Positions 29,585-49,224 of a stretch of DNA of 64,000 nt are shown piece by piece; within the stretch, counting starts at the first letter, position 1, and each line of letters begins with the position of its first letter. Location: positions 87,685-151,684 of IMG/VR virus record IMGVR_UViG_3300028797_000103, one strand, 5' to 3'. The stretch is from a virus. Its lineage: Duplodnaviria > Heunggongvirae > Uroviricota > Caudoviricetes. The notes under the pieces were generated by a model. It was not told the origin of the DNA. It searched no databases and saw only the letters and a list, made by a program, of their open reading frames with translations. A program made the position numbers and the translations under genes.

Positions 29585-29585
29585 T

Positions 29586-34341: not shown

Positions 34342-34641
34342 AAACTTCGGGGTAACCCGTAAGGTCTTTGACAATACTGACAAAACGAATCAATCGCGAT
34401 TTGATATGTGAATTGATAATCGCAAAACAATAGACGTCGGGGAGAGGGAACGATGGTGAGTCCCAACGGACAGTCACCCTCTCCCCAGTCGATAAGGAAA
34501 TTGAATCGTCCACTGTGAAGATAACTTCTGCTAGGAGCTTGAGTTTATCGCTTCCGCCGGAACGCTCTGTCTTTACAGCCGTCCTATTTGGTCGATATCA
34601 TTTTATTTTAAGAGATTATTTGGTTTCCTTTTATTTTTAAT

Positions 34642-34714
34642 CGGGGTGTAGCTCAGTTGGTAGAGTACGTGGTTTGGGACCATGGGGTCGCAGGTTCGAG
34701 CCCTGTCACCCCGA
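34642..34714 (+). tRNA. tRNA-Pro(TGG)
   Basis: Hand-folded cloverleaf. Acceptor CGGGGTG/CACCCCG and anticodon loop TTTGGGA. Confidence 0.7.
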
Positions 34715-34938
34715 CAAAGCATAGAGAGGTCAGAAAGATTCTTCGCATCGAGTTGAGGTTAACTTTAAACTCATTTTGCGACGTTTGGACTATTCGCTAA
34801 GCGTTTGTCGGTTACGAAAAAACAGAATCAGGTATGGTATAGGATGTAGGGGAAATACGAAATCCGTCCCCGAACCAAGGTGAGTTCCTGCTGAATATGA
34901 AGGATCGTGTAGACAGGAACGAGTATCTGTGCTTTAAT

Positions 34939-35023
34939 GGGGAGGCTGCTCAGATGGCGGATGGGCGCCGGACTGTAAATCCGGTACAAGGAAACACAGT
35001 GGGTTCGAATCCCACCCTCCCCA
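34939..35023 (+). tRNA. tRNA-Tyr(GTA), long variable arm; D-arm atypical
   Basis: Acceptor GGGGAGG/CCTCCCC, anticodon stem CCGGA/TCCGG with loop CTGTAAA, and T-arm GTGGGTTCGAATCCCAC. Confidence 0.55.
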
Positions 35024-35264
35024 CTTGCGACTTGGTGAAAAATGTGCCTGTAAAAAGTCTAATCAGTGTAGTATGTGAGGCTAGCATATGATGGTTTAGC
35101 TGGGTCCTTTAGTATGAAATCCTGATGGTGCGGCCGCAACTGACGGAAAGTAAAAAACAGGTTTGGAGTCATCACGCCCCGTATCATAGTGGGGTATTTA
35201 CGTGGAAGTCGTAGGTCGCTACCATTACGAGACTTAGGTCTTGATAAAAACAAACTAAACAAAA

Positions 35265-35510
35265 ATGAATAGCACCAACAAAGAAACTTTGAAGGAGTTT
35301 GGTAAAGCAGCGCTTCTCATAATTTTGGGTCTCGTTGTAATCATCACTTCAGCCGGTGTTTGGAACGGTGTTGCTTCACACACAATCGATTCATTCTACG
35401 GTTGGGTAGCAGGTCTTAACTTAGTTGCCGAGGGCTTCGGAATCTGGAGTCTTTACAAATGGCTGTTCAAAAAGAAAGTCGAAGACAAGGAGAAGAAGGA
35501 TGGGAACTGA
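35265..35510 (+). CDS. small membrane protein
   Basis: 81 aa with two hydrophobic helices, embedded in the tRNA region. Confidence 0.35.
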   Translation: MNSTNKETLKEFGKAALLIILGLVVIITSAGVWNGVASHTIDSFYGWVAGLNLVAEGFGIWSLYKWLFKKKVEDKEKKDGN

Positions 35511-35587
35511 TGCCTAAAGAACAAAATCGGTTAATCTCGACTGTTGTCGAGCTTCGGGATTTATGACAGGGTCCTTAACCGATAAAT

Positions 35588-35666
35588 GCGGACGTATCGC
35601 CACTGTCTTATACACAGTCATTAACAGCGTAATTGGGGTATGGGAGTTCGAGTCTCTCCGTCCGTA
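35588..35666 (+). tRNA. tRNA-like element with anticodon-like hairpin ACTGT-CTTATAC-ACAGT (TAT) but no canonical D-arm
   Basis: Acceptor GCGGACG/CGTCCGT and T-arm GGGAGTTCGAGTCTCTC. Possibly degenerate. Confidence 0.3.
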
Positions 35667-35673
35667 CTAATAT

Positions 35674-35761
35674 CGCGGGTTAGAGAAGTTGGTCATCTCG
35701 CCGGTCTCATAAGCCGGAACTGGACAAAATCTGGTCGGGGGTTCGAATCCTTCACCCGCTA
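35674..35761 (+). tRNA. tRNA-Met(CAT)-like with ~14-nt insertion in variable region
   Basis: The anticodon arm CCGGT-CTCATAA-GCCGG is identical to the tRNA at 42693. D-arm GAGA/TCTC. The variable region is unusually long. Confidence 0.45.
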
Positions 35762-36748
35762 CAAAACAAATCGGTATCCGTCTGGTCGGAAAAGTAAGGT
35801 GAGGTTGGAAGAGTCCTCGCAAAACGTCGATCCGTACGCCTGAAAAAACAAAACAGCACTACCGGTTAGACTTATAGAGAGGTGAAATGATATATCCTCC
35901 GATGTAGCCGAATCACTCTGGGATTGGAAGACAACAGAGCGGCGAACTTCCAGCGAGCAGTGCTCGCCTCGACGTAGTGTCGATATTGCTAGACAGGTCT
36001 TCTCACAAGATGCTCGAAGTGTTATTTATTGGGAGAGAGAGCCCCAAGAAGTCCAAAGGGAACGCGTTTAACTTCAGAACGCAGAGGACCGATGCAAGAC
36101 AGTCACGAAGCGATAACTTTTCACGAGAGTGGCAAATCACAACAAAAATTTTTCTGGTCAAGTTCTATGGGAAAAGTAAAGCCCGTGACGATGCCACAGT
36201 TGATCGGTGTTCGTTCTACCGGATACAGGAACGTTCGTAGCGGATGTACCGTTACGTTGACAGATTAGACAATCAATTGCTGGATACGGGATACGCAGAA
36301 AGAGGAAGACCGCTCGTCATAATGACGGGAATTTCTTTACGGTGGTTATACTTTTACACCTTTTTCGATCTTCTTGCGTTGTGATTTTTTTATGATTAAT
36401 GTTGATTTAAAAATATATGCAGGATTAGCCTCATGGCGAACTTGCGCAAAAACGGTTTACGCCGACCTTAAAGCGCGTCGTGGAGATATGCGTCAATATC
36501 GGTGGCACGGTGCAAGACCACGGATGTACAGCCGCAACAAAGCACTAAGGGAGAGGTAACGTTACTCCTTAAAACTATATTTTTGGAGTAGGCATGTGAA
36601 CGCCGAGGGACCAAGTTTTGAAACGTTAATAGAAACTGGGGAACGGTGTCTGTGGCAAATCGTGAAGGAAGTGAGGGTGCAAATCCCCTACCACATTTAT
36701 TTGTGGTGTCAATAGTAGCGTTTTACACAGATACAAAAATCACCAAAT

Positions 36749-36820
36749 GGGGCGGTAGCTCAGTGGTAGAGCACTGGACTGAAAATCCAGGTGTCGGCAG
36801 TTCAACTCTGCCCCGCCCCA
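36749..36820 (+). tRNA. tRNA-Phe(GAA)
   Basis: GGGGCGG...CTGGA-CTGAAAA-TCCAG...TTCAACT...CCGCCCC A. Confidence 0.8.
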
Positions 36821-37302
36821 CAAAGTCTTGATTTTACACAAACCGAAAGGGTCGGTCACTGTGTTGACATCTTGTGACAATGAGCGCTACCAAGTATAAA
36901 ATTGCCGTGACGTGCACTCATGTGAAATGGTATAGTAGGAGCAATGGTAAGTCCGGTGCCTCAATATCTCTTAAAGATGCTGTCGGTTCGAAACGGCGGC
37001 GGAGTGGCTAGAAAGACGGAACCCACCTTGAGAGGTGCAAATCTAAGGTAAGCCTGCAAGAATAATCAAGACATCGGTACAGCTTTATCCCGAACAGTAG
37101 TAGGGTCCGGTTGGGCGTGAGTTCGAATCTGCAAGCGGCGAAGTGTAACTCTTCAACGCGATGGTTTTCCAAAAACCGGGTATAGCTTAGGGGTTGTGTA
37201 CAGACTCCGTTCAGTTATGATTGAATAACCAAAGCGAGGTGTCGCAGGAAGTCGCATCGGGGAGTGAAGTTGCTATTCTCCCCTTTTTTAGAAATTTGGA
37301 TC

Positions 37303-37375
37303 GACCTCGTAGCTCAGTTGGTAGAGCACGACACTTTTAATGTCGGGGTCACGGGTTCGAGCCCCGTCGGGGTCA
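37303..37375 (+). tRNA. tRNA-Lys(TTT)
   Basis: GACCTCG TA GCTC...CGACA-CTTTTAA-TGTCG...TTCGAGC...CGGGGTC A. Confidence 0.8.
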
Positions 37376-37463
37376 CAGCAATTGTCGCAGTCAGAAAATG
37401 TACAAGGAACATGCTTGCTTAACAGCAGATACAATAATGGTGTTCTGGAGATTGTGACCTTTG

Positions 37464-37536
37464 CTCTCTTAGCTCAGTTGGTAGAGCACGACACTCTTAA
37501 TGTTGGGGTCCAGGGTTCGAGCCCCTGAGGGAGCAC
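37464..37536 (+). tRNA. tRNA-Lys(CTT)
   Basis: GCTCTCT TA GCTC...CGACA-CTCTTAA-TGTTG...TTCGAGC...AGGGAGC A. Confidence 0.8.
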
Positions 37537-38115
37537 GAGGTGTAAGTTTCATCGGGTTGGCGCACGCAGGCGAATTCCTGCGCATACGAAAAGAAAGCGA
37601 ACTCGGTCTAATCCATTGAGAGAATGGTAATATGAATGTCCAATAGCTCAGAGGAAGAGCAGCGGGACCACCGTTTGTCGGGATTTCGAAATTCCCTTGG
37701 GCATCAACACCTATGCGAACACATAAGTTTAGGCGGGCTGGCATTGCGGGTTGCAAACCCTTTGTCGGTTTATGTCGCGTTGAACGATCGGGGATAGTCA
37801 ACGATTCCAAACTGGATGAAAGCTGTTTAATACGGTACCTAAAACTTCAGCTTAGCGTTTAAGTGGATAGTTGCAAAAGTTGCCTCTGACACAGAGCGAA
37901 GAAGTGGGTTCGACTCCCGCACGCGATACAAAATAGCATTTGCAAAAGACGTCGTGCATCTAAAAGCAAGCGATACGCCAAAGTCTACGTACCTTTTGAG
38001 ATGACTACTGCGCAGTTAAAGTCGCTCACCTGTGTGTCGGAACTGGTCTGGGATTGTACCAGAGTTTAAGCTGATGGAAACACTGTATAAGAGATATTGT
38101 TTGTGCTATTATATT

Positions 38116-38187
38116 GGGGCAGTAGCTCAGCGGTAGAGCAGCGGACTGTTAATCCGCTGGTCGTAGGTTCGAATCCTACCTGCCCCG
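38116..38187 (+). tRNA. tRNA-Asn(GTT)
   Basis: GGGGCAG TA GCTC...GCGGA-CTGTTAA-TCCGC...TTCGAAT...CTGCCCC G. Confidence 0.8.
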
Positions 38188-39023
38188 CGAAACTTATTAC
38201 CATATTATCTTTCGGAGAAATGGTTGGATAAAGCTCGCGTGGAAGACGGCAATTGTCCGTAAAAGTTCAGTTAAAGGTTATCTTCCTTCATCAAGACGCT
38301 GAGTGTCGGTCACTCACCCAATCCCACACTGGGAATCCGCAGAATAGGCTTAATTGTGCATCGCTAATATGCGGACGGAATCTTGTAGCACAACATTGGT
38401 TTCGGAGGAAGTTCGAATCTTCCCGTCTTGGCAACAGCAGGCATCGGAAGGAATGCGACGGGATCCCCATTAGAGAGCTGACTGCTCTAGATGGTTCTTA
38501 TTCTAAATGTAGACCTTGAAGCCACGGAGATTGGTAGAAGAATAATGCGAATCTGGCGGTATCTCCACAACGCGTCGTTCGCAAAATGGTTGGGTTTAGT
38601 CGCTGATGTCGCCATAATGTATAAGTCCTGCTGACGTAAAAGTCGTTGATTCCGGCTGACCACTTTGCTGAGTAGGCGTCAAATTGGAGAAGTGATGCTG
38701 AGGGGGCATAGTAAAAGAACCGCGTAGTATGCGAAGAGAAATTCCGTCATTAACTCCAAATATAAGTCGGGGTGGCTAGCAAAGGGAACGGTTCCGGTCC
38801 AATATCATAAAAATCCTTATGAAATCTGAGACAATCACGAGTCGGAATGGGTACAATTTGAAAAAATTGGGTTGCGGAGAAGATAACTCTTCATGCATTT
38901 ACATCGGAAGAACACAGTAGCAAAATTAACCTGAGGTGGGCTCACCCTCTTGAAAAAATAGAGGATAAGCAAGAACAGAGAGTACATAGTTTATTTAAAA
39001 CATCCGATGACCAACATTATAAC

Positions 39024-39098
39024 GTGCCATTAGCTCAGGTAGAAGAGCCGAGGGGCTTTGCCCCACACGTGTCGGCGGTGCAAATCCGTCATGGTGCG
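39024..39098 (+). tRNA. tRNA-like, atypical anticodon arm (possible Lys-TTT-like; C33, 6-bp stem/5-nt loop alternative)
   Basis: Acceptor GTGCCAT/ATGGTGC with a canonical D-arm. The anticodon region is GAGGG-GCTTTGC-CCCAC and the T-loop is TGCAAAT. Confidence 0.3.
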
Positions 39099-39104
39099 TA
39101 TTTC

Positions 39105-39179
39105 GGGAGGTTAGCTCAGTTGGTTTAGAGCATCTGCCTTACAAGCAGAGGGTCACTGGTTCGAATCCAGTACCTCCCA
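39105..39179 (+). tRNA. tRNA-Val(TAC)
   Basis: GGGAGGT TA GCTC...TCTGC-CTTACAA-GCAGA...TTCGAAT...ACCTCCC A. Confidence 0.8.
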
Positions 39180-39507
39180 CTAGAGATACTTGAGGTTCTC
39201 GACAAATGAACAAAGTACACGTTCACCAGAGATAAACACAGGAACTGACGTGGTGTATAAACAGGAAAAGCACGCAAGTAACAACATAGGCGATTTCGAA
39301 TACCCTATGGCTCTACCCAAACGGCGTTGTTTCGCCGTTATAAAAACAACTAATCAATTACTATGAAAAAGAATTATTTCTTTGGGTAGGTTTCTTCGGA
39401 TTCCTCCATTGTTCTTGAGAAAGTGATGCCTCCTTAATGTTTCGTTTTATTTTTACCTTTAATCTTTTACCAAAATCTTTAATCTTAAAACTAAAACGAA
39501 AACAATT

Positions 39508-39837
39508 ATGAAAGCAAATATCTTAAAATTCAAGAACGACATTAAGGCTCTCGTTGAAGAGCAGAAAGTTAACAAACTCAACAGGAAGACCGACAGGCTT
39601 CCGGAAAACTTTGTCCGCACAAAACCAGCATGGCAAGCAGCCGAGGACGCAAAGTCTCTCAAATACACACTTGAATGTGCGTATATGGCTTATGCAATCC
39701 TTCGCGGAAAGGATGATGAATTTCTTTCTAAGATCGATAATGACTGGGAATACATCAAGTCTTGTTATCAAACTAGAAAGTTCGTTGACAAGTATGCGGA
39801 CGAAAATCCAGAATCAGTTGCAGGAGAAGCAGCATAA
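39508..39837 (+). CDS. hypothetical protein
   Basis: 109-aa ORF inside the tRNA array. Confidence 0.4.
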   Translation: MKANILKFKNDIKALVEEQKVNKLNRKTDRLPENFVRTKPAWQAAEDAKSLKYTLECAYMAYAILRGKDDEFLSKIDNDWEYIKSCYQTRKFVDKYADENPESVAGEAA

Positions 39838-40117
39838 TCGGCTTTATATAATAGTCGATAAAAGTCTAGACCCAGTTTATGGGTGCGTTCAAGGCGGTCA
39901 TGCTGCTTGTCAGTTTTTACTGGAACATCCTGACAGTGATTGGAAAAACGATTATTTGATTTATCTGTACGGAGACGTTGAGAAAGTCAGATATAAGTTG
40001 AGTCGCACCGACAAACGATTCTCTGAGTTTAAGGAACCCGATCTCGGTGGCATGTTGACTTCACTTGCTGTGGAGGATGATGGAAGGATGTTCAGGAACT
40101 ATAAATTAGTTTCCTGA
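39799..40117 (+). CDS. PTH2-like (peptidyl-tRNA hydrolase 2 family?) small protein
   Basis: The motif VYGCVQGGHAACQF resembles the PTH2 G-x-AAQC-HAA region. The start is uncertain because the frame is open from 39554 and overlaps the upstream gene. Confidence 0.3.
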
Positions 40118-40238: not shown

Positions 40239-40245
40239 CAATAAA

Positions 40246-43287: not shown

Positions 43288-43464
43288 CTAATTCACGACA
43301 GTATTTGCAGGTTCAAGTCCTGTTCTGAGGCGGATGACGACGAACTGGTATGTAGCTTAATGGTGTTAAATCCCGTGCCAGCCTTTGTTAGGGAGTTGCT
43401 GTTAAGTAAGGTCGGCTGTTGATAAATCTGCTGTCATAGCGCTGTGGCAGTACGTGAATGATAT

Positions 43465-43550
43465 AGGTCGGTCGCCTAGCGGTTGATGGCATCAGTCTCC
43501 AAAACTGACGAGGTTATTCCTCCACGTGGGTTCGAATCCTACCCGGCCTG
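43465..43550 (+). tRNA. type-II (long variable arm, Ser-like body) tRNA with anticodon CCA (Trp codon), discriminator G73
   Basis: AGGTCGG TC GCCTAGCGGTTGATGGC A TCAGT-CTCCAAA-ACTGA with variable stem GAGG/CCTC, then GTGGG-TTCGAAT-CCTAC CCGGCCT G. The anticodon stem has five perfect base pairs. Confidence 0.55.
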
Positions 43551-43700
43551 CTGTTTTTCTTAGACCGCATCCGAAATGTCGACGTCGGAATGAAATTTAA
43601 AAAACAAGAATTTTCCCTGAATGTCGGTTGTATCTGGGAACGTCGGTTCGGGACGTAATATCCAATAGTCGTGACGTATAAGCCGAACAACGACTAGTCT

Positions 43701-43774
43701 GGCCCCTTAGCTCAGTTGGACAGAGCAACAGTCTTCTAAACTGTGGGTCCCGCGTTCGAATCGCGGAGGGGTCA
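43701..43774 (+). tRNA. tRNA-Arg(TCT)
   Basis: GGCCCCT TA GCTC...ACAGT-CTTCTAA-ACTGT...CCGCG-TTCGAAT-CGCGG AGGGGTC A. Confidence 0.8.
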
Positions 43775-43976
43775 CAAATATGAGAGGATGGACAAATGGT
43801 AAAGTCGCCCCCGTTGGTGTGGGGAGGCGCCTAATAAACCTATTCATTAAGAGGATAAACGGTACGTCGCGAGTCCGCCGAATTCTGAATATTATGGTAA
43901 ATAAGCGCAGAGCTGTTTCACTGTCGCGATTTGAAACAGCCGATTGGAGGTTCGAGCCCTTCTCGCTCTCACACAT

Positions 43977-44106
43977 GGTGGTATAGTTTAATGGAGTATG
44001 GCTAGCCGATTAAAGAGCTTCGACAGTATGCAAGTTCCGTTTCCGTACCTTGAGAATGCCTTCCATGGGCAGGAAGGTGATCAACGTTCGATTCGTTGTA
44101 CCACCG
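43977..44106 (+). tRNA. ~130-nt tRNA-like element (matching acceptor ends GGTGGTA/TACCACC and canonical T-arm CAACG-TTCGATT-CGTTG); possibly intron/insert-containing tRNA
   Basis: The terminal acceptor pairing and T-arm are clear. The interior is too long for a standard cloverleaf. Confidence 0.3.
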
Positions 44107-44111
44107 CAAAT

Positions 44112-44183
44112 GCCCCTATAGTGTAATGGATCGCACGAGATGCTACGGACATCTTAGTAGGGGTTCGAATCCTCTTAGGGGTA
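44112..44183 (+). tRNA. tRNA-Arg(ACG)
   Basis: GCCCCTA TA GTGT-AATGGATC-GCAC G AGATG-CTACGGA-CATCT TAGT AGGGG-TTCGAAT-CCTCT TAGGGGT A. Confidence 0.75.
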
Positions 44184-44240
44184 CACAAAGATTCATCTTA
44201 TAAATCCATAGAATAAATAGCATATCAAAATTATGCTTAA

Positions 44241-45887
44241 ATGATGAATTCTGAAATCTTAATAGTGTCGTTGACATCATACCCGAAACGAATACATTGT
44301 GTATATGATGTTTTGATTTCATTGCTAAATCAGACCGTAGACAGGGCTTTATATCATGTTGTGCTTGTTTTATGCTCATCTGAATTTCCGAATGGAATCA
44401 AGGATGTTCCTGAAAATATAAAACATCTTGTCGATTCTGGCGATGTTGAGATAATATGGCATCCAACTAATATAAGGTCTCATAAAAAACTTATCCCTAC
44501 ATTGAAAAAATATCCAAACGATCCTATACTTGTTGTGGATGATGACTCTATAAGGGATCCGAAATGGATAGAAGTTTTCTTGAACGATCATAAAAAATAT
44601 CCAAATGACATCATAGGAGGAAATTTTGCTTGGTTCTTTGGAAGCGGACTTGAACTTTCTCGGTTATCATCAAGAAAGCGCAAATGCGGTTCTTATATGA
44701 ACGGAATAGCCGGAATGGTTTTAAACTTTGCTAAGCCAGCAAACGGAGACGGTGGGTGTTTATATCCAGCTGGAACATTTACAGATTCCAGATTCTTTGA
44801 TGAAAACTTATTCATGAAGCTTTCTCCAACGTCGGATGAATCGTGGCAGTTTTGTTTCAATATTATAGAGAACAGAACTTTTCGTCAGACCAGTGTAGTT
44901 TTTGATGCCAGTGAACGATTTATAGAAGGGACGCAGGAAATGCCAACGGCATTACACAGAGTAAACAACTACACAGATATAAACAAAAGATTGTTTTCGG
45001 AGTTTCCAGAATTCAAATCAAATCTACTGAAAAGACAAAGAAAAATAGTAGTGTCTTTGACAACATATGGAAACAGACTAAAAAGCGGAGCTGTTGACAA
45101 AACAATACAAAGCATATTGAATCAGAGTATAAAACCAAGTAAAATTGTTTTGAACATAGATTCAGGTGATGAGGTATATTTCTCTGATTGGCTCAAAGAT
45201 AAAATAAAACATGGTGTCGTTGAGTTAATATCAACGAAAGATGTATTCAAGCCTCACAAAAAATATTTTTATGTGATGCAGAAATACAGGGACTATGCGA
45301 TAATAACTTTTGATGACGATCAAGTCTATTCAAAGGATGCTATAAAGGAATTGTTTGAATCTTATTTAAAACATCCAGATTGCGTTTCAGCAAGACGAGT
45401 TCATCTGATGAAGAAAGGTATAAACGGAAAAATTTCTTCATATTCAAATTGGACGAAAGAATACACCGGAATGGTTGATGTTCCGTCTGATGCTTTGTTT
45501 GCTACAGGCGTTGGTGGTGTATTATATCCACCAGACATATTAGGTATAAACGATGACAATATAAAAGAAATCGAAAAATACTTAAACGTGGATGACATTT
45601 ATCTTAAAGTCCTCGAACAAAGAAAAGGAATAAAGGTGGTGAAATGTAAAACGGGGAATTTATATGAATCATCTATCGTTGATAAAGTTACGCAAATGAA
45701 TGCTTTGCAAAATAGAAATGTTAGAAACAATGAAAACGATCTTTATCTTGGAGAGTTGGTGGTTGATAACGTTTCTGACGTTTGTTCAAATGTATCATCT
45801 GTAATATCTAAGAGGTGCGCATCTTATTGGAGAACTAAAATTTCTGAGCCGGTTGGAACACGCACAGCAAAATTTACCAGAAGATGA
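44241..45887 (+). CDS. tandem-domain glycosyltransferase-like protein
   Basis: Two internal repeats each begin I(L/V)VSLT(S/T)Y(P/G)(K/N)R and carry a DDD/DXD-like motif (ILVVDDDS; ITFDDDQ). Confidence 0.4.
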   Translation: MMNSEILIVSLTSYPKRIHCVYDVLISLLNQTVDRALYHVVLVLCSSEFPNGIKDVPENIKHLVDSGDVEIIWHPTNIRSHKKLIPTLKKYPNDPILVVDDDSIRDPKWIEVFLNDHKKYPNDIIGGNFAWFFGSGLELSRLSSRKRKCGSYMNGIAGMVLNFAKPANGDGGCLYPAGTFTDSRFFDENLFMKLSPTSDESWQFCFNIIENRTFRQTSVVFDASERFIEGTQEMPTALHRVNNYTDINKRLFSEFPEFKSNLLKRQRKIVVSLTTYGNRLKSGAVDKTIQSILNQSIKPSKIVLNIDSGDEVYFSDWLKDKIKHGVVELISTKDVFKPHKKYFYVMQKYRDYAIITFDDDQVYSKDAIKELFESYLKHPDCVSARRVHLMKKGINGKISSYSNWTKEYTGMVDVPSDALFATGVGGVLYPPDILGINDDNIKEIEKYLNVDDIYLKVLEQRKGIKVVKCKTGNLYESSIVDKVTQMNALQNRNVRNNENDLYLGELVVDNVSDVCSNVSSVISKRCASYWRTKISEPVGTRTAKFTRR

Positions 45888-45909
45888 TTTCAAATAATTA
45901 AAAAATTCT

Positions 45910-45922
45910 GTATATTTGCAAA
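45910..45922 (+). promoter_or_regulatory. conserved promoter box gTATATTTGcaaa
   Basis: Located 8 nt upstream of tRNA-Ser. Confidence 0.55.
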
Positions 45923-45929
45923 ACATATT

Positions 45930-46017
45930 GGAGGGTTGGCAGAGTGGTCTATCGCGTCGGTCTTGAAAACCGAAGATCTTCACGGGTCCGGGGGTTCGAA
46001 TCCCTCACTCTCCGCCA
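45930..46017 (+). tRNA. tRNA-Ser(TGA) with genomically encoded 3' CCA
   Basis: GGAGGGT TG GCAGAGTGGTCTATCGC G TCGGT-CTTGAAA-ACCGA with a long variable arm, then GGGGG-TTCGAAT-CCCTC ACTCTCC G CCA. Confidence 0.75.
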
Positions 46018-46585
46018 TTAAATTTGAGCACGTGTCGATGACATCGCTGGGTGTACAGACGAGAAGGACAACTCTTAAGGTAACGGGTGTGTTAAACCAG
46101 CCCGCGAGTGCTCTTTTCAAATCAATCTAGAACTCCGAGGAAACTTCACAAGCATTAAGTTTGCCTCTGTGATGCCAAGTTCGAAATTGATGAGAAAAAT
46201 ACATCAACGTTATGGTGGTGGGATTGGAAGCGTCCATCCTTAATGAGTGACTGAGCACCGGATCTATTAACGCCTTTCGGAATCGTCACGTTGATGCAGA
46301 TGAGATAAAACTCTGCAAAGCTTATATCTGTGTGGATATATCGACAAAAACAAGGAATGCTTTGCGGTACGGAAAAACGAGGTGTCACATAAACCTTTCG
46401 TAAGAATCATCTGTTTTGCGCATCATCGACGTGAGCAAACGTGCAGAAAGAAACGCAACTTAGTCGGATAAATGCAATAAGAAACTTTATGTTCGAACTA
46501 ATAAGACTTCCTGAAGTGAAAAGCTAATTGTTTTATTAGTTGTATTTGTCTTTGGCGTAAAAGCACGCCGTACGTTAGATGTTTT

Positions 46586-46658
46586 GCGGGATTAGCTCAG
46601 TTGGCAGAGCGTCTGCTTGCCATGCAGAAGGTCGAGAGTTCGAATCTCTTATCCCGCT
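46586..46658 (+). tRNA. tRNA-Gly(GCC)
   Basis: GCGGGAT TA GCTC...TCTGC-TTGCCAT-GCAGA...TTCGAAT...ATCCCGC T. Confidence 0.8.
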
Positions 46659-46712
46659 CAAGTAAGGGTGCAACAGAGCTGGGACACTGGTTGTATCCCG
46701 AAAGTCCCCCAA

Positions 46713-46785
46713 GCGGAACTAGCTCAGTTGGTAGAGCGGCGGCTTCCCAAGCCGCAGGTCACGAGTTCGAACCTCGCGTTCCGCT
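46713..46785 (+). tRNA. tRNA-Gly(CCC)
   Basis: GCGGAAC TA GCTC...GCGGC-TTCCCAA-GCCGC...TTCGAAC...GTTCCGC T. Confidence 0.8.
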
Positions 46786-46862
46786 CAGATTTTTACGGAT
46801 TTATTTGTTTTATTGGAAAATTCTTCATACCTTTGCAAAAGAAACAAATAAATTATAAAGAT

Positions 46863-47255
46863 ATGAACGATTGGCATAACAAAATTATGAAATTGGACCT
46901 CACCAAATGGGTTGTTACGAAGTTTTATCACTACGCTTCGATTTGTCAAGACATTTTTGCGGAATATGATGAAGTTTGGAACAACAAACCTGTTGGTGAT
47001 CCATACATAAAAGAGTTGTATATTCATTTTTTGTCTATAGCAAATCTTTATTATAAAGAATACACCGGAAGGAAGTACAGCGACATTCGTGATAATAAGA
47101 CCACAATAGAAATCACGAATGTGGAAACTGGGGAAAAGCTTTACATCACTTCCAAAGATGGTAGATTCCTTATAGGAAGGAGTGTGTGGAGTGAGTTCGG
47201 AATTGTTACAAATTTTGGAGTTTGCCAATATGAGTCAAAGATAGATAAAAAATAA
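46863..47255 (+). CDS. hypothetical protein
   Basis: Track ORF 46617..47255 was trimmed to the first ATG after the two tRNA-Gly genes. Confidence 0.4.
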   Translation: MNDWHNKIMKLDLTKWVVTKFYHYASICQDIFAEYDEVWNNKPVGDPYIKELYIHFLSIANLYYKEYTGRKYSDIRDNKTTIEITNVETGEKLYITSKDGRFLIGRSVWSEFGIVTNFGVCQYESKIDKK

Positions 47256-47259
47256 AGAT

Positions 47260-47331
47260 GCGGGAGTAACTCAGTGGTAGAGCGTCAGCCTTCCAAGCTG
47301 AAAGTCGCGGGTTCGAATCCCGTCTCCCGCT
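47260..47331 (+). tRNA. tRNA-Gly(TCC)
   Basis: GCGGGAG TA ACTC...TCAGC-CTTCCAA-GCTGA...TTCGAAT...CTCCCGC T. Confidence 0.8.
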
Positions 47332-47341
47332 CCATTCACAA

Positions 47342-47459
47342 ACAGAAATGGTGAAATTGGTAACCACAGTGGACCAACCCAATATTCCTACTCATGGGGT
47401 AACCCACGGCGAAGCGCAGTAGGTTGTACGTAGCTTGTCGGTTCGAGTCCGGCTTTCTG
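47342..47459 (+). tRNA. ~118-nt tRNA-like element (acceptor ACAGAAA/TTTCTGT, T-arm GTCGG-TTCGAGT-CCGGC) with oversized interior
   Basis: The terminal helix and T-arm are canonical, with a ~40-nt excess between the D-arm region and T-arm. Confidence 0.3.
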
Positions 47460-47478
47460 TATGTGATATTGATTTAAT

Positions 47479-47931
47479 ATGAAAAGGATAGTTTCATTTA
47501 TTTTAATTGATATCGCTGCAATATTGTCTTTCGGTTGTATAAAAGCTGAAACAGACAACCAATGCTTTAAGGTTGGAAACTTTAATGAAGTGATAGAAAT
47601 AAAAGTAGACGATATCACATCAATAGAATATCTTGTTTCATTTAACTTTAATCAAAGATATGTGAAATATCAATGTTGTAAACAGGAAATAACTGTTATA
47701 CAAGAAAGTCCGAAAGAATTTGAAACAATAATTATCTATCCTGTGACAAGAAGAGTAAAAACCTTGCTCATAAATGAGATAACGTTTACAAGAAATTCAT
47801 TTTTATATAACTTAAAAGAGTGGGACAATCTAAGAAGCAACGGAGAAGATTATTTCTGCATATATAATAATAGGGATGCAGTTTGTTCATTTGAACTTCT
47901 TGATGAGATAATTGAACATTGTAACGAATAA
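47479..47931 (+). CDS. secreted hypothetical protein (signal peptide)
   Basis: MKRIVSFILIDIAAILSFGC. Confidence 0.4.
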   Translation: MKRIVSFILIDIAAILSFGCIKAETDNQCFKVGNFNEVIEIKVDDITSIEYLVSFNFNQRYVKYQCCKQEITVIQESPKEFETIIIYPVTRRVKTLLINEITFTRNSFLYNLKEWDNLRSNGEDYFCIYNNRDAVCSFELLDEIIEHCNE

Positions 47932-48084
47932 ACATAAATCGTGAGCACGTTGTGTGCAGAGAGGAGACGTCCCACCACAACGGTCACCGCGATGAAGATG
48001 CGGCTCAAGCTTTAGTCTAGACGATAGAGCCTCGGTCAAAGCCCGACGCAGCCTTGGGGAGAAGCGATAAAGCCTCCCTCGTAT

Positions 48085-48157
48085 GGGGGTATAGCTCAGT
48101 TGGTAGAGCATCTGATTTGCATTCAGAAGGTCGCCGGTTCGAACCCGACTACCTCCA
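48085..48157 (+). tRNA. tRNA-Ala(TGC)
   Basis: GGGGGTA TA GCTC...TCTGA-TTTGCAT-TCAGA...TTCGAAC...TACCTCC A. Confidence 0.75.
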
Positions 48158-48163
48158 CAATCC

Positions 48164-48237
48164 GCTCTCATCTTACTAATGGCTTAGGTGGCCAGCCTCT
48201 CACGCTGGAGATATGGGTTCGAGTCCCGTTGGGAGTA
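48164..48237 (+). tRNA. tRNA-Glu(CTC)-like, weak D-arm
   Basis: Acceptor GCTCTCA/TGGGAGT, anticodon arm CCAGC-CTCTCAC-GCTGG and T-arm ATGGG-TTCGAGT-CCCGT. Confidence 0.4.
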
Positions 48238-48247
48238 CAACCGAATT

Positions 48248-48328
48248 GCGGGTGTGGCGGAATGGTAGACGCGTCAGACTTAGGATCTGGTGTCGCAAGG
48301 CGTATGGGTTCGAGTCCCTTCACCCGCA
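48248..48328 (+). tRNA. tRNA-Leu(TAG)
   Basis: GCGGGTG TG GCGGAATGGTAGACGCG TCAGA-CTTAGGA-TCTGG with a long variable arm, then ATGGG-TTCGAGT-CCCTT CACCCGC A. Confidence 0.8.
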
Positions 48329-48523
48329 CGAATAAATATTATGAACACCGAGGGGAAAGAGATACTGCTTACACAGACTCACCGTAAGCACTCTGGAATT
48401 CGATTTATTCGTAGGTGTGGACGTCGGAAGGGTGAGCCCGCCGTTCTTAGGTTGTCCTGTGTCGCCAGGATCGCGTAGGTGTTTTTTATAAGGCGTATGA
48501 TCACTTTATAATTCACCGTCATC

Positions 48524-48594
48524 GCCCGATTAGTTCAACGGTAGAACAGGACCTTCGTAACGTTCAGATGTTGGTTCGATTCCGACATCGGGCT
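48524..48594 (+). tRNA. tRNA-Thr(CGT)
   Basis: GCCCGAT TA GTTC AACGGTA GAAC A GGACC-TTCGTAA-CGTTC AGAT GTTGG-TTCGATT-CCGAC ATCGGGC T. The anticodon stem has one mismatch. Confidence 0.55.
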
Positions 48595-48610
48595 CTTTAA
48601 GATTATAGAT

Positions 48611-48682
48611 TGCGCTGTAGCTCAGAGGCAGAGCAGGAGATTCATATCCTCCAGGTCGGCATTTCGAAATTGCCCAGCGCAA
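48611..48682 (+). tRNA. tRNA with CAT anticodon (elongator Met or Ile2/lysidine-type)
   Basis: TGCGCTG TA GCTC AGAGGCA GAGC A GGAGA-TTCATAT-CCTCC AGGTC GGCAT-TTCGAAA-TTGCC CAGCGCA A. Confidence 0.6.
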
Positions 48683-49224
48683 CAAATAAAATACAAATTT
48701 AATTTTCATGAAAACAAGAGAAATTGATGAATAATAATTTGGGGACGATATAGAATTTGACTCAAGTTGTCGAACATAATAAGCACGTCGTGCGCCGGTC
48801 ATTTAGCACGTTAATCTCGATGATCAAGAAATAGCTGACAACAGCAACTACAGACTCGCTGCTTAATCAACCGTGTTGGTTAACTTAATTCATCGGAGCC
48901 AAGGCAGCTTCGGAACGAGTGCTTCAGCAGAAGTTTTCTGTCTTCGGTATATTCTGCAACACGAAGCATCATCATTAACCGGAGAGCAGCATCGAAACCC
49001 TTCGTATCGATGTTCGCTAAATCGAAGGAAGGCTGTTCAGGTTTTGTTTCTCTTTTTCTGCCAGCAAATTATAAGAGAAAATAAACGTGTAGAAAGTTGT
49101 GTAAGAGATTTGAACACGGCGGGGCGGTTCCGCCCGTCTCCACAAATTTTGGTTCGTTTTGTCACTTTTGTTAAGTTTTTTGAAAATTTTTGCAAAAATA
49201 CTTTTTTATTTCAAATAAATACAG

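Follow-up and report, generated by a model that had tools for sequence, protein, structure and literature searches.

The sequence between the tRNA genes of this phage array is probably, for the most part, conserved and folded non-coding RNA and not the remains of decaying tRNAs. The window, which is the whole stretch of 64,000 nucleotides analysed here, belongs to a jumbo phage of ~330 kb that probably infects a rumen or gut Bacteroidota bacterium. We lean toward reading the locus as polycistronic RNA islands driven by promoters, with novel structured RNAs punctuated by tRNAs and tRNA-like modules. Outside the tRNAs, a tmRNA and a GOLLD-like RNA, ~7.5 kb of non-coding sequence remain, and by sequence comparison this remainder is a set of discrete modules (A, B, D, E, G, H, J, K, and the leader; Table 1), not filler. 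In three related phage contigs these modules are conserved at least as well as the protein genes, and those with enough divergence among relatives have kept their helices through compensatory changes. The relatives compared were the loci L093, L101, L087, and L083/L001, with only two to four independent sequences per element. The G+C content is higher in the ORF-free stretch (0.44–0.47 vs 0.36–0.41).

Table 1. Features of the RNA island, in window coordinates.
Feature	Position	Strand	Basis
Predicted tandem phage promoters, GTACATTTGCAA at 34235 and CGTATATTTGCAA at 34330	34235–34341	+	Repeat family D4
Structured leader RNA, upstream of tRNA-Pro	34346–34641	+	Conserved in L093 and L101
tRNA-Pro(UGG)	34642–34715	+	ARAGORN; Rfam 64.1 bits
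Element A, conserved non-coding RNA, 223 nt	34716–34938	+	~98% identical to L093
tRNA-Tyr(GUA), class II	34939–35024	+	ARAGORN; Rfam 32.4 bits
Element B, structured RNA, ~200 nt	35025–35254	+	Covariation; two copies in L093
81-aa membrane-like ORF on ~270-nt insertion	35265–35510	+	In L101, absent from L093
tRNA-like, acceptor and T-arm, no D-arm, loop CUUAUAC	35588–35666	+	Rfam tRNA 29.9 bits; 7-bp acceptor closure
tRNA(CAU), 89 nt, long variable arm, C1-U72 mismatch	35674–35762	+	ARAGORN; Rfam 48.9 bits
Element D, ORF-free conserved RNA, 986 nt	35763–36748	+	~95% identical to L093, 99% to L101
tRNA-Phe(GAA)	36749–36821	+	ARAGORN; Rfam 75.2 bits
Element E, non-coding RNA, 481 nt, terminator-like hairpin 37259–37289 at end	36822–37302	+	
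tRNA-Lys(UUU)	37303–37376	+	ARAGORN; Rfam
tRNA-Lys(CUU)	37463–37536	+	ARAGORN; Rfam
Spacer F, holding the next two elements	37537–38115	+	First 92 nt 87% identical to L093
tRNA-like, 5-nt anticodon loop	37636–37712	+	Fold
Expanded tRNA-like, 156 nt	37774–37929	+	ARAGORN intron mode; acceptor and T-arm closure
tRNA-Asn(GUU)	38116–38188	+	ARAGORN; Rfam 78.9 bits
Spacer G1/G2, holding the next element and a 590-nt non-coding stretch	38189–39022	+	
Expanded tRNA-like, 141 nt	38292–38432	+	Fold; acceptor and T-arm closure
Deviant tRNA-like, called tRNA-Gln(UUG), T-loop UGCAAAU, 8-bp acceptor	39023–39099	+	ARAGORN only
tRNA-Val(UAC)	39105–39180	+	ARAGORN; Rfam
tRNA(CUA), amber suppressor	40166–40239	+	ARAGORN; Rfam
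tRNA-Asp(GUC), first copy	40246–40319	+	ARAGORN; Rfam
tRNA-Asp(GUC), second copy	40324–40398	+	ARAGORN; Rfam
tRNA-Glu(UUC)	41264–41336	+	ARAGORN; Rfam
Spacer, holding the next element	42348–42683	+	94.8% identical to L101
Weak tRNA-like	42420–42489	+	Rfam tRNA 32.2 bits; ARAGORN Ser(CGA) at lowered threshold only
tRNA(CAU)	42684–42755	+	Rfam 54.2 bits; 84% identical to L087/L093 tRNA-Met
~210-nt insertion relative to L087, holding the next element	42759–42968	+	Alignment
Mini tRNA-like	42905–42964	+	Inside the insertion
Element G, conserved structured RNA	42969–43204	+	78–81% identical to L093/L087
tRNA-Leu(GAG)	43205–43288	+	ARAGORN; Rfam
Element H, structured RNA, ~165 nt, T-loop-like hairpin	43289–43464	+	78–88% identical in L083/L001, L093, L087
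tRNA(CCA), 87 nt, long variable arm, G73	43465–43551	+	ARAGORN; Rfam
tRNA-Arg(UCU)	43701–43775	+	ARAGORN; Rfam
Expanded tRNA-like, first of pair, T-arm 43946–43962	~43781–43971	+	Conserved in L093/L087
Expanded tRNA-like, second of pair, 131 nt	43977–44107	+	Acceptor GGTGGTA/TACCACC perfect; T-arm
tRNA-Arg(ACG)	44112–44184	+	ARAGORN; Rfam
Predicted internal phage promoter, ahead of tRNA-Ser(UGA)	45911–45922	+	Repeat family; motif scan
tRNA-Ser(UGA)	45930–46017	+	ARAGORN; Rfam
Spacer, 568 nt, between tRNA-Ser(UGA) and tRNA-Gly(GCC)	46018–46585	+	
tRNA-Gly(GCC)	46586–46659	+	ARAGORN; Rfam
tRNA-Gly(CCC)	46713–46786	+	ARAGORN; Rfam
tRNA-Gly(UCC)	47260–47334	+	ARAGORN; Rfam
Element I, expanded tRNA-like RNA, 120 nt	47342–47461	+	74% identical to L087/L093
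Element J, conserved structured RNA	47932–48084	+	75% identical to L087/L093
tRNA-Ala(UGC), tRNA-Glu(CUC) (48164–48238), tRNA-Leu(UAG)	48085–48329	+	ARAGORN; Rfam
Element K, conserved structured RNA	48330–48523	+	73% identical to L093
tRNA-Thr(CGU) and tRNA(CAU)	48524–48683	+	ARAGORN; Rfam
tmRNA, tag peptide DNSNYRLAA (tag from ARAGORN -m at lowered threshold)	48741–49145	+	Rfam RF00023, 86.9 bits (gathering score 47), E 2e-32
Predicted tandem promoters for GOLLD-like RNA	49225–49350	+	Same tandem module as array start
GOLLD-like large RNA, ~900 nt	49350–50250	+	Rfam-matched 3' domain 49777–50203
tRNA-Cys(GCA), 86 nt, long variable arm, U73	51618–51703	+	ARAGORN; Rfam
tRNA-Ile(GAU)	56671–56745	+	ARAGORN; Rfam
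tRNA-Ser(GCU)	57101–57190	+	ARAGORN; Rfam 53.8 bits
tRNA-His(GUG)	60585–60658	+	ARAGORN; Rfam
tRNA-Leu(UAA), intron-split	60689–61399	+	Sequence reading; exon joining
tRNA-Leu(CAA)	61403–61487	+	ARAGORN; Rfam

Covariation was tested against slid and shuffled controls for elements B and H. Element B (four sequences) has 55 pairs, 97.2% paired, with 12 double-sided changes vs 0–5 in slid controls, and element H has 46 pairs, 98.4% paired, with 11 vs 0–2; for both, 0 of 500 shuffles reached the value. A covariance-model search with element H returned its four known copies only. An RNAalifold-based analysis (leader, E, G, J, K, S13, G2, and I) gave pair counts with an upward bias, as one alignment served both to optimise the structure and to count its pairs. 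Here, double-sided pairs numbered 11 in G, 12 in J, and 8 in K, each vs at most one when slid, and eight in the leader, whose long hairpin changes from GGGGAGAGGG...CCCTCTCCCC to GGGGATGGATG...CATCCATCCCC among relatives. The stretch 38433–39022, 89% identical to L101, has nine double-sided compatible changes (at most one slid). Element E matches L093 at 85% identity over its first 237 nt and has three double-sided, 11 one-sided compatible and no broken pairs; its hairpin GCTGTCG-GTTCGAAA-CGGCGGC corresponds to ACTACAG-GTTCGAAA-CTGTAGC in L093.

Elements A and D, the two most strongly conserved, are too similar between relatives for covariation to show. Element A has 96% identical columns over three sequences, and its block with tRNA-Pro is 96% identical to L093. 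Element D differs from L093 at 52 positions in 986 nt, including four indels (~98% identity over 35763–36640), with two double-sided, ~17 one-sided compatible and nine broken pair changes. These 52 differences lack a 3-nt periodicity, stops occur in all frames, and neither Rfam at E ≤ 10 nor Pfam on its ORFs gave a match. The spacer 35517–36640 is ~98% identical to L093, compared with 68–74% for protein genes and ~80% for the adjacent tRNA-Phe.

An earlier note on this DNA had left several spacers as ORF-free and unexplained. They are indeed ORF-free (35.8–36.7, 36.8–37.3, 37.5–38.1, 38.2–39.0, and 42.35–42.69 kb), in the standard code and with TAG read-through, and the ~7.5 kb matched no Rfam or Pfam family, element A and spacer F being without an Rfam match as well. 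They are not filler, as they are conserved and several show strong covariation. For the four largest spacers the MFE z-scores lie close to zero (−0.47 for element D, −0.19, +0.56, and +0.95). The spacer 46018–46585 had no nhmmer match in any locus and no Rfam family.

Around ten modules are tRNA-shaped in their top half only, with a perfect 7-bp acceptor stem and a canonical T-arm, the D/anticodon half being replaced by other helices or a 5-nt loop. Scanning for a T-arm and then for 7-bp acceptor closure turned up six non-canonical elements whose closure lies within 160 nt, where we estimate ~1 by chance. Such segments without a full cloverleaf, many of which occur in the array, had been taken for degenerate relics of tRNAs. 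All seven segments named then exist and carry the claimed T-arm and/or acceptor pairing. Two of them belong elsewhere: the one at 48164 is an ordinary tRNA-Glu(CUC) by ARAGORN and Rfam (42.7 bits; 88% identity in L093), and the one at 39023 is a tRNA by ARAGORN only, without an Rfam match even at E ≤ 10 and with unrelated sequence in its place in L101. At 43290–43340 the T-loop hairpin is real and is part of conserved element H. Compensated stems speak against decay. The acceptor of element I differs from its L087 homologue at 7/7 pairs and is nevertheless fully paired, with a conserved T-arm and a compensated inner helix (CCTACT/AGTAGG to TCTACT/AGTAGA); the T-stem of 35588–35666 carries a compensatory A-T to G-C change in L093 and L101; and the double-sided pairs of B and H point the same way. 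The elements 43977–44107 and 47342–47461 hold 45–65 extra nucleotides beyond the perfect acceptor and T-arm. No counterpart of the former aligns in L093 or L087, and its neighbor at ~43781–43971 shows eight double-sided pairs in that comparison. The element 37636–37712 looks, from its sequence, like a copy of the tRNA(CAU) at 48611.

Part of the high spacer conservation could reflect recent recombination and not constraint, since identity to the relatives is mosaic: 35674–37536, for example, is ~99–100% identical to L101, which is collinear with the window at 94% over 5.3 kb. Turnover of the locus is real and, as the alignments indicate, proceeds by mosaic exchange and insertions. Of the turnover by duplication and decay proposed before, the first half is supported by paralogues (Lys UUU/CUU 86% and Gly GCC/CCC 79% identical), copies and insertions, and decay is not supported. 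Close relatives differ by the presence or absence of insertions, and their anticodon loops hold short tRNA-like elements and group I/HNH introns where the same loops are intact here. Examples are a ~840-nt HNH-encoding insertion in tRNA-Tyr and a 155-nt insert in the second tRNA-Asp(GUC) of L101; a 76-nt insert in L093 and a ~480-nt group I intron in L083 in the tRNA-Lys(UUU) orthologue; and, in L087, a ~105-nt insert with a tRNA-like element in tRNA-Lys(CUU) and a 74-nt insert after nt 36 of tRNA-Arg(UCU). The tRNA-Val(UAC) orthologue of L093 has a 93-nt insert at 35/36.

Predicted strong phage promoters of the Bacteroidota −7 type (box TAnnTTTG) lie at 34235/34330, 45911, 49225/49339, 51462, 56650, and 60565, and the strict motif has 16 plus-strand and no minus-strand occurrences. 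The first pair would start the array transcript; 51462 lies ahead of tRNA-Cys, and 56650 precedes tRNA-Ile. The GOLLD-like RNA matched RF02032 over the full model (1–416; 73 bits, E 1.3e-17, below the gathering score of 150), has complementary pseudoknot strands and ends at a predicted bidirectional terminator (50220–50243). GOLLD and ROOL are often found near tRNA islands, and the GOLLD linker sometimes holds tRNAs (PMC12286853); Mycobacterium tRNA clusters contain GOLLD and HNH (PMC6582537). The locus extends this known phage theme of a tRNA island plus GOLLD.

Each promoter-led unit may be transcribed as a long precursor, which host RNase P and RNase Z could, by analogy, cleave at every tRNA and tRNA-like top half, so that the tRNAs and the structured RNAs between them would be released as individual stable molecules. 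A similar release is known from the T4 tRNA cluster, where RNAC and RNAD, stable RNAs with unknown roles, derive from the tRNA region (PMC3014915). During infection, the phage tRNAs would add to those of the host or take their place. For the non-decoding tRNA-like RNAs and the larger RNAs, the likeliest roles would be those of decoys or substrates for host nucleases and enzymes directed at tRNA, or of GOLLD-like ornate scaffolds. The locus itself would evolve by cassette exchange and mobile-element insertion, not by slow decay.

Well-supported tRNA genes, all on the plus strand, number 26 in 34.6–48.7 kb and 32 in 34.6–61.5 kb, and the 32 cover all 20 amino acids plus the amber suppressor. ARAGORN, run also in intron and lowered-threshold modes, found 31 by default, all on the plus strand (26 in 34642–48683, the others at 51618, 56671, 57101, 60585, and 61403). 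Rfam confirmed 30 at the gathering score, and the tRNA(CAU) at 42684–42755 was found by Rfam and overlooked by default ARAGORN. The dense, phage-borne array in a single orientation is confirmed, as are the tRNAs claimed outside it. "Exceptionally" dense is relative, as huge phages carry up to 67 tRNAs (PMC7162821). The earlier list of tRNAs was largely correct, and lacked Trp(CCA), the CUA suppressor, Gln(UUG), Glu(CUC), and the intron-split tRNA-Leu(UAA); the tmRNA and the GOLLD-like RNA had also gone unmentioned. The tRNA(CAU) at 35674 is shared with L093 and L101 at 100% identity. L093 also has the suppressor, which L101 conserves at 100%. In the tRNA(CCA), kept in three lineages, the acceptor, anticodon, and variable arms all show covariation. 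A small ORF lies among the three tRNA-Gly genes.

The tRNA-Leu(UAA) is interrupted between U34 and A35 by a 625-nt group I intron (60723–61347), the 5' exon ending in U and the intron in G. The Rfam search of the intron gave no group I match; over 146 nt it is 71% identical to the intron in the L083 tRNA-Lys. ARAGORN -i miscalled the split gene as Ser(AGA); once joined, its exons form a perfect class II tRNA-Leu(UAA).

The earlier note on this DNA had described a dense array of more than 30 tRNA genes, and this was borne out. ARAGORN called 31 tRNA genes in the window, every one on the + strand, and Rfam 30 at gathering score. As many as 26 well-supported tRNAs are packed into about 14 kb (34642-48683), and others lie outside the array at 51618, 56671, 57101, 60585 and 61403. 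A tRNA(CAT) missed by ARAGORN (42684-42755) scores 54 bits in Rfam, and a permissive Rfam run gave additional borderline tRNA matches at 42420-42489 (32 bits) and 35588-35666 (29.9 bits). The intron mode of ARAGORN pointed to an intron-split tRNA-Leu(UAA), under another name, and to tRNA-like elements. Together, the ARAGORN and Rfam calls and tRNA-Leu(UAA) give a canonical set of 32 tRNAs. Well-supported tRNAs cover 19 amino acids; the number rises to 20 only if a Gln call at 39023-39099 is counted, the sole tRNA-Gln candidate in the window, made by ARAGORN alone while Rfam was silent even at E ≤ 10.

The closest relatives of this phage are L093 (a 314,739-bp JGI contig), L101 (a 13.4-kb ENA contig) and L087 (a 7.7-kb Logan contig), and two 364-kb IMG/VR viral contigs (loci L001, L002 and L083) are more distant. 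A search of INPHARED phages for relatives returned tRNA-sized matches only. Three tRNAs of the window, at 35674-35762 (CAU), 43465-43551 (CCA) and 51618-51703 (GCA), have long, class II-like variable arms, although these anticodons normally belong to class I tRNAs. The long-arm tRNA(CCA) has G73 and is kept in three phage lineages, between which its acceptor, anticodon and variable arms covary; L001 has an ordinary tRNA-Trp as well. Heavily used codons in the window are ATA, AAA, GAA and GGA. ATA is the top Ile codon of the phage (38 per 1000) and a canonical tRNA-Ile(UAU) is absent from the set; the element at 35588-35666, which adjoins the long-arm tRNA(CAU), has an anticodon-like loop, CUUAUAC (UAU).

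Long stretches between the tRNAs are free of ORFs. From 33.7 to 39.5 kb no ORF exceeds 113 aa, and the single called gene is an 81-aa ORF. In principle, these spacers could be protein-coding, either through a reassigned stop codon or as many small ORFs. The tRNA set does include a CUA (amber suppressor) tRNA (40166-40239), which L101 has in identical form and which also occurs in L093, and only 2 of the window's 43 ORFs end in TAG, fewer than in either other stop. Recoding with TAG might affect late genes in other parts of the phage genome. Within the window, however, the genes tile well and are intact under the standard code, none of them needing TAG read-through, and reading through TAG, TGA or TAA yielded no convincing ORFs, with no long spacer ORF coming from TAG. 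The 986-nt spacer element D contains all three stops throughout every frame, and its 52 differences from L093 are split 21/16/15 over the codon positions, without periodicity. A very basic 55-aa ORF inside D (36394-36559) is cut short in L093 by paired +1/-1 indels, so it is unlikely to be a gene. Pfam gave no credible match for any of the ten longest spacer ORFs, and public gene callers report no genes in the ORF-free stretches. A coding role of the spacers is thus hardly credible.

Searches with Rfam covariance models over 34340-39110 retrieved tRNAs only, at gathering score as well as at E ≤ 1 and E ≤ 10. The earlier note had named a match of the spacers to coding sequence as evidence against its reading, and no such match was found. 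Motifs of RNase P and of cobalamin riboswitches in element E were a likeness seen by eye; they were unsupported, and we dropped them. Inside the window, paralogy of the spacers is confined to tRNA-type and promoter repeats. The G+C content of the ORF-free stretch is 0.44-0.47, compared to 0.36-0.41 in the flanking coding DNA. Minimum free energy z-scores were close to zero for the four large spacers, so that folding energy backs neither side, and it was left out as evidence.

Features of the tRNA array and of related loci (window positions unless a related contig is named; identities are to the relatives stated)
Feature	Position	Strand	Properties
Leader	34346-34641		296 nt
Element A	34716-34938		
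tRNA-Pro + spacer A	34633-34936		96% to L093
Element B	35025-35254		covariation: 4 sequences (two copies in L093), 55 pairs, 97.2% paired, 12 double-sided; slid 0-5; shuffles 0/500
Conserved block	35517-37058		92% to L093; ~98% over 35517-36640
tRNA-Phe	within 35517-37058		~80% to L093, with compensatory changes
Element D	35763-36748		
Element E	36822-37302		
Spacer G1/G2	38189-39022		
Element G	42969-43204		
Element H	43289-43464		78-88% to L093, L087 and distant 364-kb phages over 43305-43462; covariation: 4 sequences, 46 pairs, 98.4% paired, 11 double-sided; slid 0-2; shuffles 0/500
Element I	47342-47461		
Element J	47932-48084		
Element K	48330-48523		
T-arm + 7-bp closure elements	35588-35665; 37774-37927; 38292-38430; 39024-39097; 43977-44105; 47342-47460		
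tRNA-like element	37636-37712		cloverleaf, 5-nt anticodon loop; D- and T-arms resemble tRNA(CAT) 48611
Weak tRNA-like element	42420-42489		Rfam tRNA 32 bits
Mini element	42905-42964		60 nt; within 210-nt insertion absent from L087
tRNA-like element	43781-43971		T-arm + 6/7 closure; conserved; 8 double-sided pairs
Tandem promoters	34235/34330	+	just 5' of 296-nt leader and tRNA-Pro
Tandem promoters	49225/49339	+	just 5' of GOLLD-like RNA
Single promoters	45911; 51462; 56650; 60565	+	before tRNA-Ser; tRNA-Cys; tRNA-Ile; tRNA-His
tmRNA	48741-49145		
GOLLD match	49777-50203		
Strong bidirectional terminator	50220-50243		3' of GOLLD-like RNA
tRNA-Leu(UAA)	60689-61399	+	putative group I intron 60723-61347
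Lys(UUU)	L093		76-nt insert after nt 36
Lys(UUU)	L083		~480-nt group I intron in anticodon loop, homologous to window Leu intron
Lys(CUU)	L087		~105-nt insert in anticodon loop, holding tRNA-like element (36 bits)
Arg(UCU)	L087		74-nt insert after nt 36
Val(UAC)	L093		93-nt insert at 35/36
Gly(UCC)	L093		100-nt insert at 35/36
Asp (second copy)	L101		155-nt insert at 35/36
Tyr	L101 2655-3557		~840-nt insert within gene, encoding HNH endonuclease (198 aa)

The spacers are more conserved than the protein genes around them. Coding DNA is 68-74% identical to L093 (68% at 33835-34498, 69% at 39387-40243, 74% at 40615-41336, and 68% in the GT2 glycosyltransferase gene), well below the spacer blocks of the table. 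In the 364-kb phages, besides H (88%), only tRNAs and a 65-nt promoter-like stretch (49298-49362) align. Such conservation could also reflect a recent exchange of blocks between related phages, in which the spacers hitch-hiked with the tRNAs and their sequence was not selected. L101 is collinear with the window at 32.1-42.8 kb and 94% identical over 34998-40240, and its identity is mosaic, with 100% at 35674-37536, 89% at 38433-39022 and 44-64% at 39023-39180. Similarly, the 98% block in L093 is bordered by sequence of 80-85% identity, and A and D are nearly without informative substitutions. The mosaic indicates that recombination contributes, and the high identity of A and D alone is therefore not readable as constraint. 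As an account of all the spacers, exchange is nevertheless quite unlikely. It would require recombination ends exactly at the tRNA borders, H is common to the far more distant 364-kb phages, and the diverged elements B, E, G, H, I, J and K (74-88%) keep their pairing by double changes.

These double changes point to conserved RNA structures between the tRNAs. For H and B, they outnumber those of the slid controls, and none of 500 shuffles reached the observed value (see table). In structures derived with RNAalifold, there were 11 double-sided pairs in G, 12 in J, 8 in K, 8 in the element S13, 9 in G2 and 6 in I, compared to at most 2 when slid, although these counts are biased upward, the structure having been fitted to the few sequences on which the pairs were counted. 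In E, a hairpin GCTGTCG-GTTCGAAA-CGGCGGC becomes ACTACAG-GTTCGAAA-CTGTAGC in the alignment with a relative, and in the leader the hairpin GGGGAGAGGG/CCCTCTCCCC is replaced by GGGGATGGATG/CATCCATCCCC in relatives. The T-stem of 35588-35666 has an A-T pair that is G-C in both L093 and L101. The homologues are few and mosaically related, and A and D, the largest and best conserved elements, are without covariation support: of 280 pairs in D, 2 changed on both sides, about 17 on one side compatibly, and 9 were broken. Pattern scans of IMG/VR found H in the two 364-kb contigs only and gave no match for D or B, and a covariance model of H found no copies beyond its four training sequences in 0.94 Mb of loci. 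Two 20-mer matches of D in GTDB genomes were judged to be chance. When homologues of D were sought via a neighbouring 84/90-aa gene, the contigs found ended before the array.

Part of the conserved material is shaped like the top half of a tRNA. A scan looked for canonical T-arms with a 7-nt strand 3' of them that pairs perfectly with an upstream 7-mer. It recovered the true tRNAs and six further elements closed within 160 nt (see table). The earlier note had regarded seven segments of this kind as degenerate relics. Four of them are indeed tRNA-like modules, though probably not decaying ones, and 39023-39099 is a deviant, lineage-specific tRNA-like element. Of the remaining two, 48164-48238 is a real tRNA-Glu(CUC), and the other is part of H. 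Where decay could be assessed it did not hold, as the stems of 35588, 47342, S13 and H are kept by compensatory change. Element I illustrates this best. It is 74% identical to its homologue in L087/L093, with the same T-arm, an inner hairpin changed from CCTACT/AGTAGG to TCTACT/AGTAGA, and an acceptor stem that is wholly different yet fully paired (ACAGAAA/TTTCTGT versus TTGATGGT/ACCATCAA). A re-paired acceptor and compensated stems elsewhere suggest that the tRNA-like modules are maintained mimics of the tRNA top half, and not decaying genes. For 37636, 37774 and 38292 the relatives are only 94-99% identical, and for 39023 and 43977 there is no homologue.

The reading of the earlier note, in which the non-cloverleaf segments are pseudogenes left by duplication and decay, has observations in its favor, also when it is extended to the long spacers as neutral debris or processing spacers that have no function themselves. 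The array contains paralogous tRNAs, 37636-37712 resembles a damaged copy of tRNA(CAT) 48611, two elements (39023-39099 and 43977-44107) are lineage-specific, the spacer 46018-46585 is without homologue, and the folding energies are unremarkable. Decay would, however, erode acceptor stems first, and six of the odd elements have perfect 7-bp acceptor stems. Compensatory changes also hold the stems of B, G, J and K, the G+C content is raised and not relaxed towards A+T, and the spacers exceed protein genes in conservation. We therefore consider this reading unlikely.

The expanded elements (37774, 38292, 43781, 43977 and 47342) could also be real decoding tRNAs with short spliced introns, which would add to the functional tRNAs of the array. 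The intron mode of ARAGORN fits them with introns of 44-65 nt, relatives certainly carry inserts in otherwise conserved tRNAs, and the phage has genes for an RNA ligase and for a HAD domain of the RNA-repair type. On the other hand, anticodons such as those of the fit (ACA, AAA, AGG) and the lack of U33 are foreign to bacterial tRNAs, and the D-arms are poor. The Rfam tRNA model is silent at E ≤ 1 for 43977 and 47342 and at E ≤ 10 for 37774 and 38292, and no bulge-helix-bulge motif was seen by eye. Moreover, 45-155 nt are too short for a group I ribozyme, and 19 amino acids are already served by canonical tRNAs, Gln depending on the doubtful 39023-39099. It is very unlikely that these elements decode. 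Maintained top-half mimics have parallels in YrlA, mascRNA, viral tRNA-like structures and phage csRNAs, which all share an acceptor/T-arm mimic on a non-tRNA body, and tRNA-like candidates have been listed in large phage surveys (PMC10690425). Unlike YrlA-type RNAs, the elements of the window have no Rfam family and are interleaved in tandem with true tRNAs, no Ro/Rsr gene was seen, and some copies in relatives sit in anticodon loops. Within the tRNA array of the 364-kb relative, L083 9298-9372 (equivalent to L001 16654-16728) weakly matches the tRNA-like portion of YrlA, with 37 bits against a gathering score of 69.

Active turnover of the array, as proposed in the earlier note, was confirmed in that the locus is dynamic, but the changes are mainly insertions and cassette exchange, rather than slow decay. 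The 81-aa ORF lies on a ~270-nt insertion that L093 does not have, 42759-42968 is an insertion relative to L087, and 39023-39180 is replaced in L101. Furthermore, relatives have interruptions in several tRNA genes whose counterparts here are intact (see table). Six of these split tRNAs (L093 5517-5666, 15265-15433 and 15460-15631; L087 4868-5014 and 5305-5490; L101 9699-9928) are interrupted at 35/36 or 36/37 by inserts of 74-155 nt. The 35/36 inserts start with ATAC[AG]G, followed by a leader hairpin of about 28 nt and then by an inner acceptor and T-arm element; no bulge-helix-bulge motifs were seen by eye at the short inserts of the relatives. Where both cover it, L087 and L093 align to the window with near-equal identities yet differ in two inserts, which indicates that the inserts are recent. 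The longer insertion in the L101 tRNA-Tyr, with its HNH endonuclease gene, is presumably a mobile intron.

A speculative extension, to which we give little credence, is that the tRNA-shaped modules are a family of small mobile RNA elements that spread within and between these phages and act as protein-dependent "tRNA-shaped introns". The leader hairpin with its acceptor/T-arm mimic would insert into anticodon loops at 35/36 or 36/37, and by their likeness to tRNAs the elements would be excised by RNase P and RNase Z. Excision would leave 3'-OH and 5'-phosphate ends, which the phage's RNA ligase or repair enzymes could rejoin. Such a tRNA-shaped intron would be distinct from group I and archaeal bulge-helix-bulge introns, and the free-standing copies at 35588, 37636, 37774, 38292, 42905, 43781, 43977 and 47342 would belong to this family, having been either domesticated or lodged between genes.

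A longer interruption is found in the window itself. Between tRNA-His and tRNA-Leu(CAA), the intron mode of ARAGORN placed a "tRNA-Ser(AGA)" spanning the interval exactly. We re-read it as tRNA-Leu(UAA), split between U34 and A35 by 625 nt, whose exons join to a perfect class II tRNA. The 5' exon ends with U and the intron with G, and ACUU at the end of the exon is able to form a P1 with GAGU, close to where the intron begins, with the U.G wobble typical of group I at the splice site. These features point to a putative group I intron. The Rfam group I model (RF00028) had no match at E ≤ 1 in 49-64 kb; core-like motifs (CCCTAAGTCGGCGAAACC, GTGTAGAGATCA and GGAACCTAAG) were recognized by eye, and the intron has no second copy in the window. 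We take the intron start (AAAUAAAUUGAG) to resemble that of the Anabaena intron, and the core motifs those of Azoarcus. The U34/A35 site, the terminal U and G and the P1 wobble are features shared with the group I introns in bacterial tRNA anticodon loops, among them those of tRNA-Leu(UAA) in cyanobacteria and plastids and of tRNA-Ile in Azoarcus. [quoted passage not shown] With 625 nt the window intron is much longer than the 200-250 nt of bacterial tRNA introns, and its host gene is a phage tRNA. A 2014 review noted that, although phages have many tRNA genes, every phage intron known at the time lay in a protein-coding gene (PMC3984707), and a limited literature search found no later report of a phage tRNA interrupted by a group I intron. 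The window is thus an example of a putative case that the review called unobserved, and close relatives add short tRNA-like insertions in anticodon loops. For tRNA counts this is a warning, as default tools here overlook intron-split tRNA genes and mis-call non-decoding mimics.

The motif GTA[TC]ATTTGCAA occurs 16 times on the + strand of the window and never on the - strand. It includes a TAnnTTTG box, which we take to be the -7 box known from Bacteroides promoters. In its strict form the motif is absent between 34330 and 45911, and the tRNAs, spacers and four or five protein genes of this stretch may be on one long transcript. An intrinsic-terminator-like hairpin (37259-37289; GGGGAG...CTCCCC followed by six T) lies just before tRNA-Lys(UUU) and may attenuate or partition this transcript.

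Directly 3' of the array are a tmRNA and a GOLLD-like RNA. The tmRNA matches RF00023 with 86.9 bits (gathering score 47, E 2e-32, model positions 1-374); ARAGORN made no call by default, and with -m at a lowered threshold it gave the tag DNSNYRLAA*, with the ending LAA. The GOLLD match covers the full model (RF02032, 1-416; E 1.3e-17) with 73 bits, below the gathering score of 150, and the two strands of the pseudoknot, CGCUGUGU and ACACAGUG, complement each other when the window sequence alone is aligned to the model. From the promoter at 49339 to the terminator, this RNA would be about 900 nt long.

Long precursors from the phage promoters would be cut by host RNase P and RNase Z at the tRNAs and at the tRNA-like top halves, releasing a range of stable structured RNAs along with the tRNAs and the tmRNA. 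The tRNAs, perhaps including the suppressor, would serve phage translation, and the tmRNA with its DNSNYRLAA tag would pair naturally with the phage ClpP. For the other RNAs, the most plausible guesses by analogy are decoys or substrates for tRNA-directed enzymes, or GOLLD-like scaffolds.

The T4 cluster shares small stable RNAs co-transcribed with phage tRNAs, namely RNAC and RNAD (species 1 and 2), which are matured by tRNA-processing enzymes; in the window such RNAs are predicted. T4 has 8 tRNAs and 2 such RNAs, whereas the present locus exceeds 30 tRNAs and has 20 or more extra modules, some of about 1 kb. The role of the two RNAs from the T4 tRNA region is unassigned (PMC3014915). GOLLD and ROOL have been described as "often near tRNA islands", with tRNAs present in some GOLLD linkers (PMC12286853); mycobacterial clusters of ~32 tRNAs carry GOLLD together with an HNH gene (PMC6582537). 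The islands of Lactobacillales prophages, marine phages and Mycobacterium share with the window some 30 same-strand tRNAs, the phage context, an adjacent ornate RNA with embedded tRNA-like pieces and, in relatives, a homing endonuclease. In contrast, the window has a Bacteroidota-like host type, about 7.5 kb of extra structured RNAs without Rfam family, a tmRNA and an intron-split tRNA, and its GOLLD score is far below gathering. Huge phages with up to 67 tRNAs and with tmRNAs have been published (PMC7162821). Their translation gene sets share with the present phage dozens of tRNAs, a tmRNA, RNA ligase and repair genes and a genome above 300 kb, but the published descriptions give tRNA and tmRNA counts, and no conserved structured RNAs in the inter-tRNA spacers.

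With these precedents, the array itself is a known kind of thing, and by its sequence features the locus is a variant of the phage tRNA-island/GOLLD theme. What appears new, or little described, is how much conserved structured RNA lies between the tRNAs and how it is organised, the series of maintained top-half mimics and the putative group I intron in a phage tRNA. Annotations of phage tRNA clusters normally list the tRNAs alone, as if the DNA between them were of no interest. Here, about half of the non-protein sequence consists of a dozen or more conserved folded RNAs of no known family, which are probably released by the same processing enzymes as the tRNAs. If expressed, they would make the locus a compact natural collection of new structured RNAs, among them one that measures about 1 kb, beside a GOLLD relative, and the top-half mimics would be candidate decoys against tRNA-cleaving anti-phage defences. 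Large phage RNAs like GOLLD were recently shown to form RNA-only nanocages.

The location of the array in a phage is supported by phage-type genes (WDGH protein, RNA ligase, dUTPase, split family B DNA polymerase) and by the one-strand promoter repeats, as well as by the 364-kb IMG/VR viral contigs among its relatives and by the 328,867-bp contig that carries the same GT2 gene. Other genes of the window encode DnaJ, an AAA ATPase, a radical SAM enzyme and an OmpA/DUF3575 protein; the DUF3575 domain suggests a Bacteroidota host. Upstream of the array are an RNA ligase (PF09414, 24822-25739) and two ORFs (29580-30026 and 29989-30684) with the HAD domain of "Swiss Army Knife" RNA-repair proteins and a ClpP protease. 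The ligase and HAD domain would fit tRNA repair, and ClpP would fit degradation of tmRNA-tagged proteins. A 308-aa protein was considered as Tpt1-like, without Pfam support, and had no match in the IMG/VR pattern scan. The ORFs 39508-39837 and 39554-40117 overlap in different frames and resemble one frameshifted gene; the arrangement is 99% conserved in L101, and the locus L085 has the same two gene calls. For 39554-40117 a peptidyl-tRNA hydrolase was considered and rejected, with no Pfam support and only a weak "hydrolase" match in PHROGs. The family B DNA polymerase appears split: its ORF (58821-60353) ends after the exonuclease and the first part of the polymerase domain, and is followed by three tRNA genes (60585-61487, one with the putative group I intron) and a GNAT gene. 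Inside the array, the GT2 glycosyltransferase gene (44241-45887) has an identical copy on a 328,867-bp ENA contig and only distant matches in the IMG/VR pattern scan. It is 40-47% identical to homologues from two rumen fungi, Neocallimastix californiae and N. lanati, which points toward a rumen origin of the phage and suggests gene transfer among rumen organisms or their viruses.
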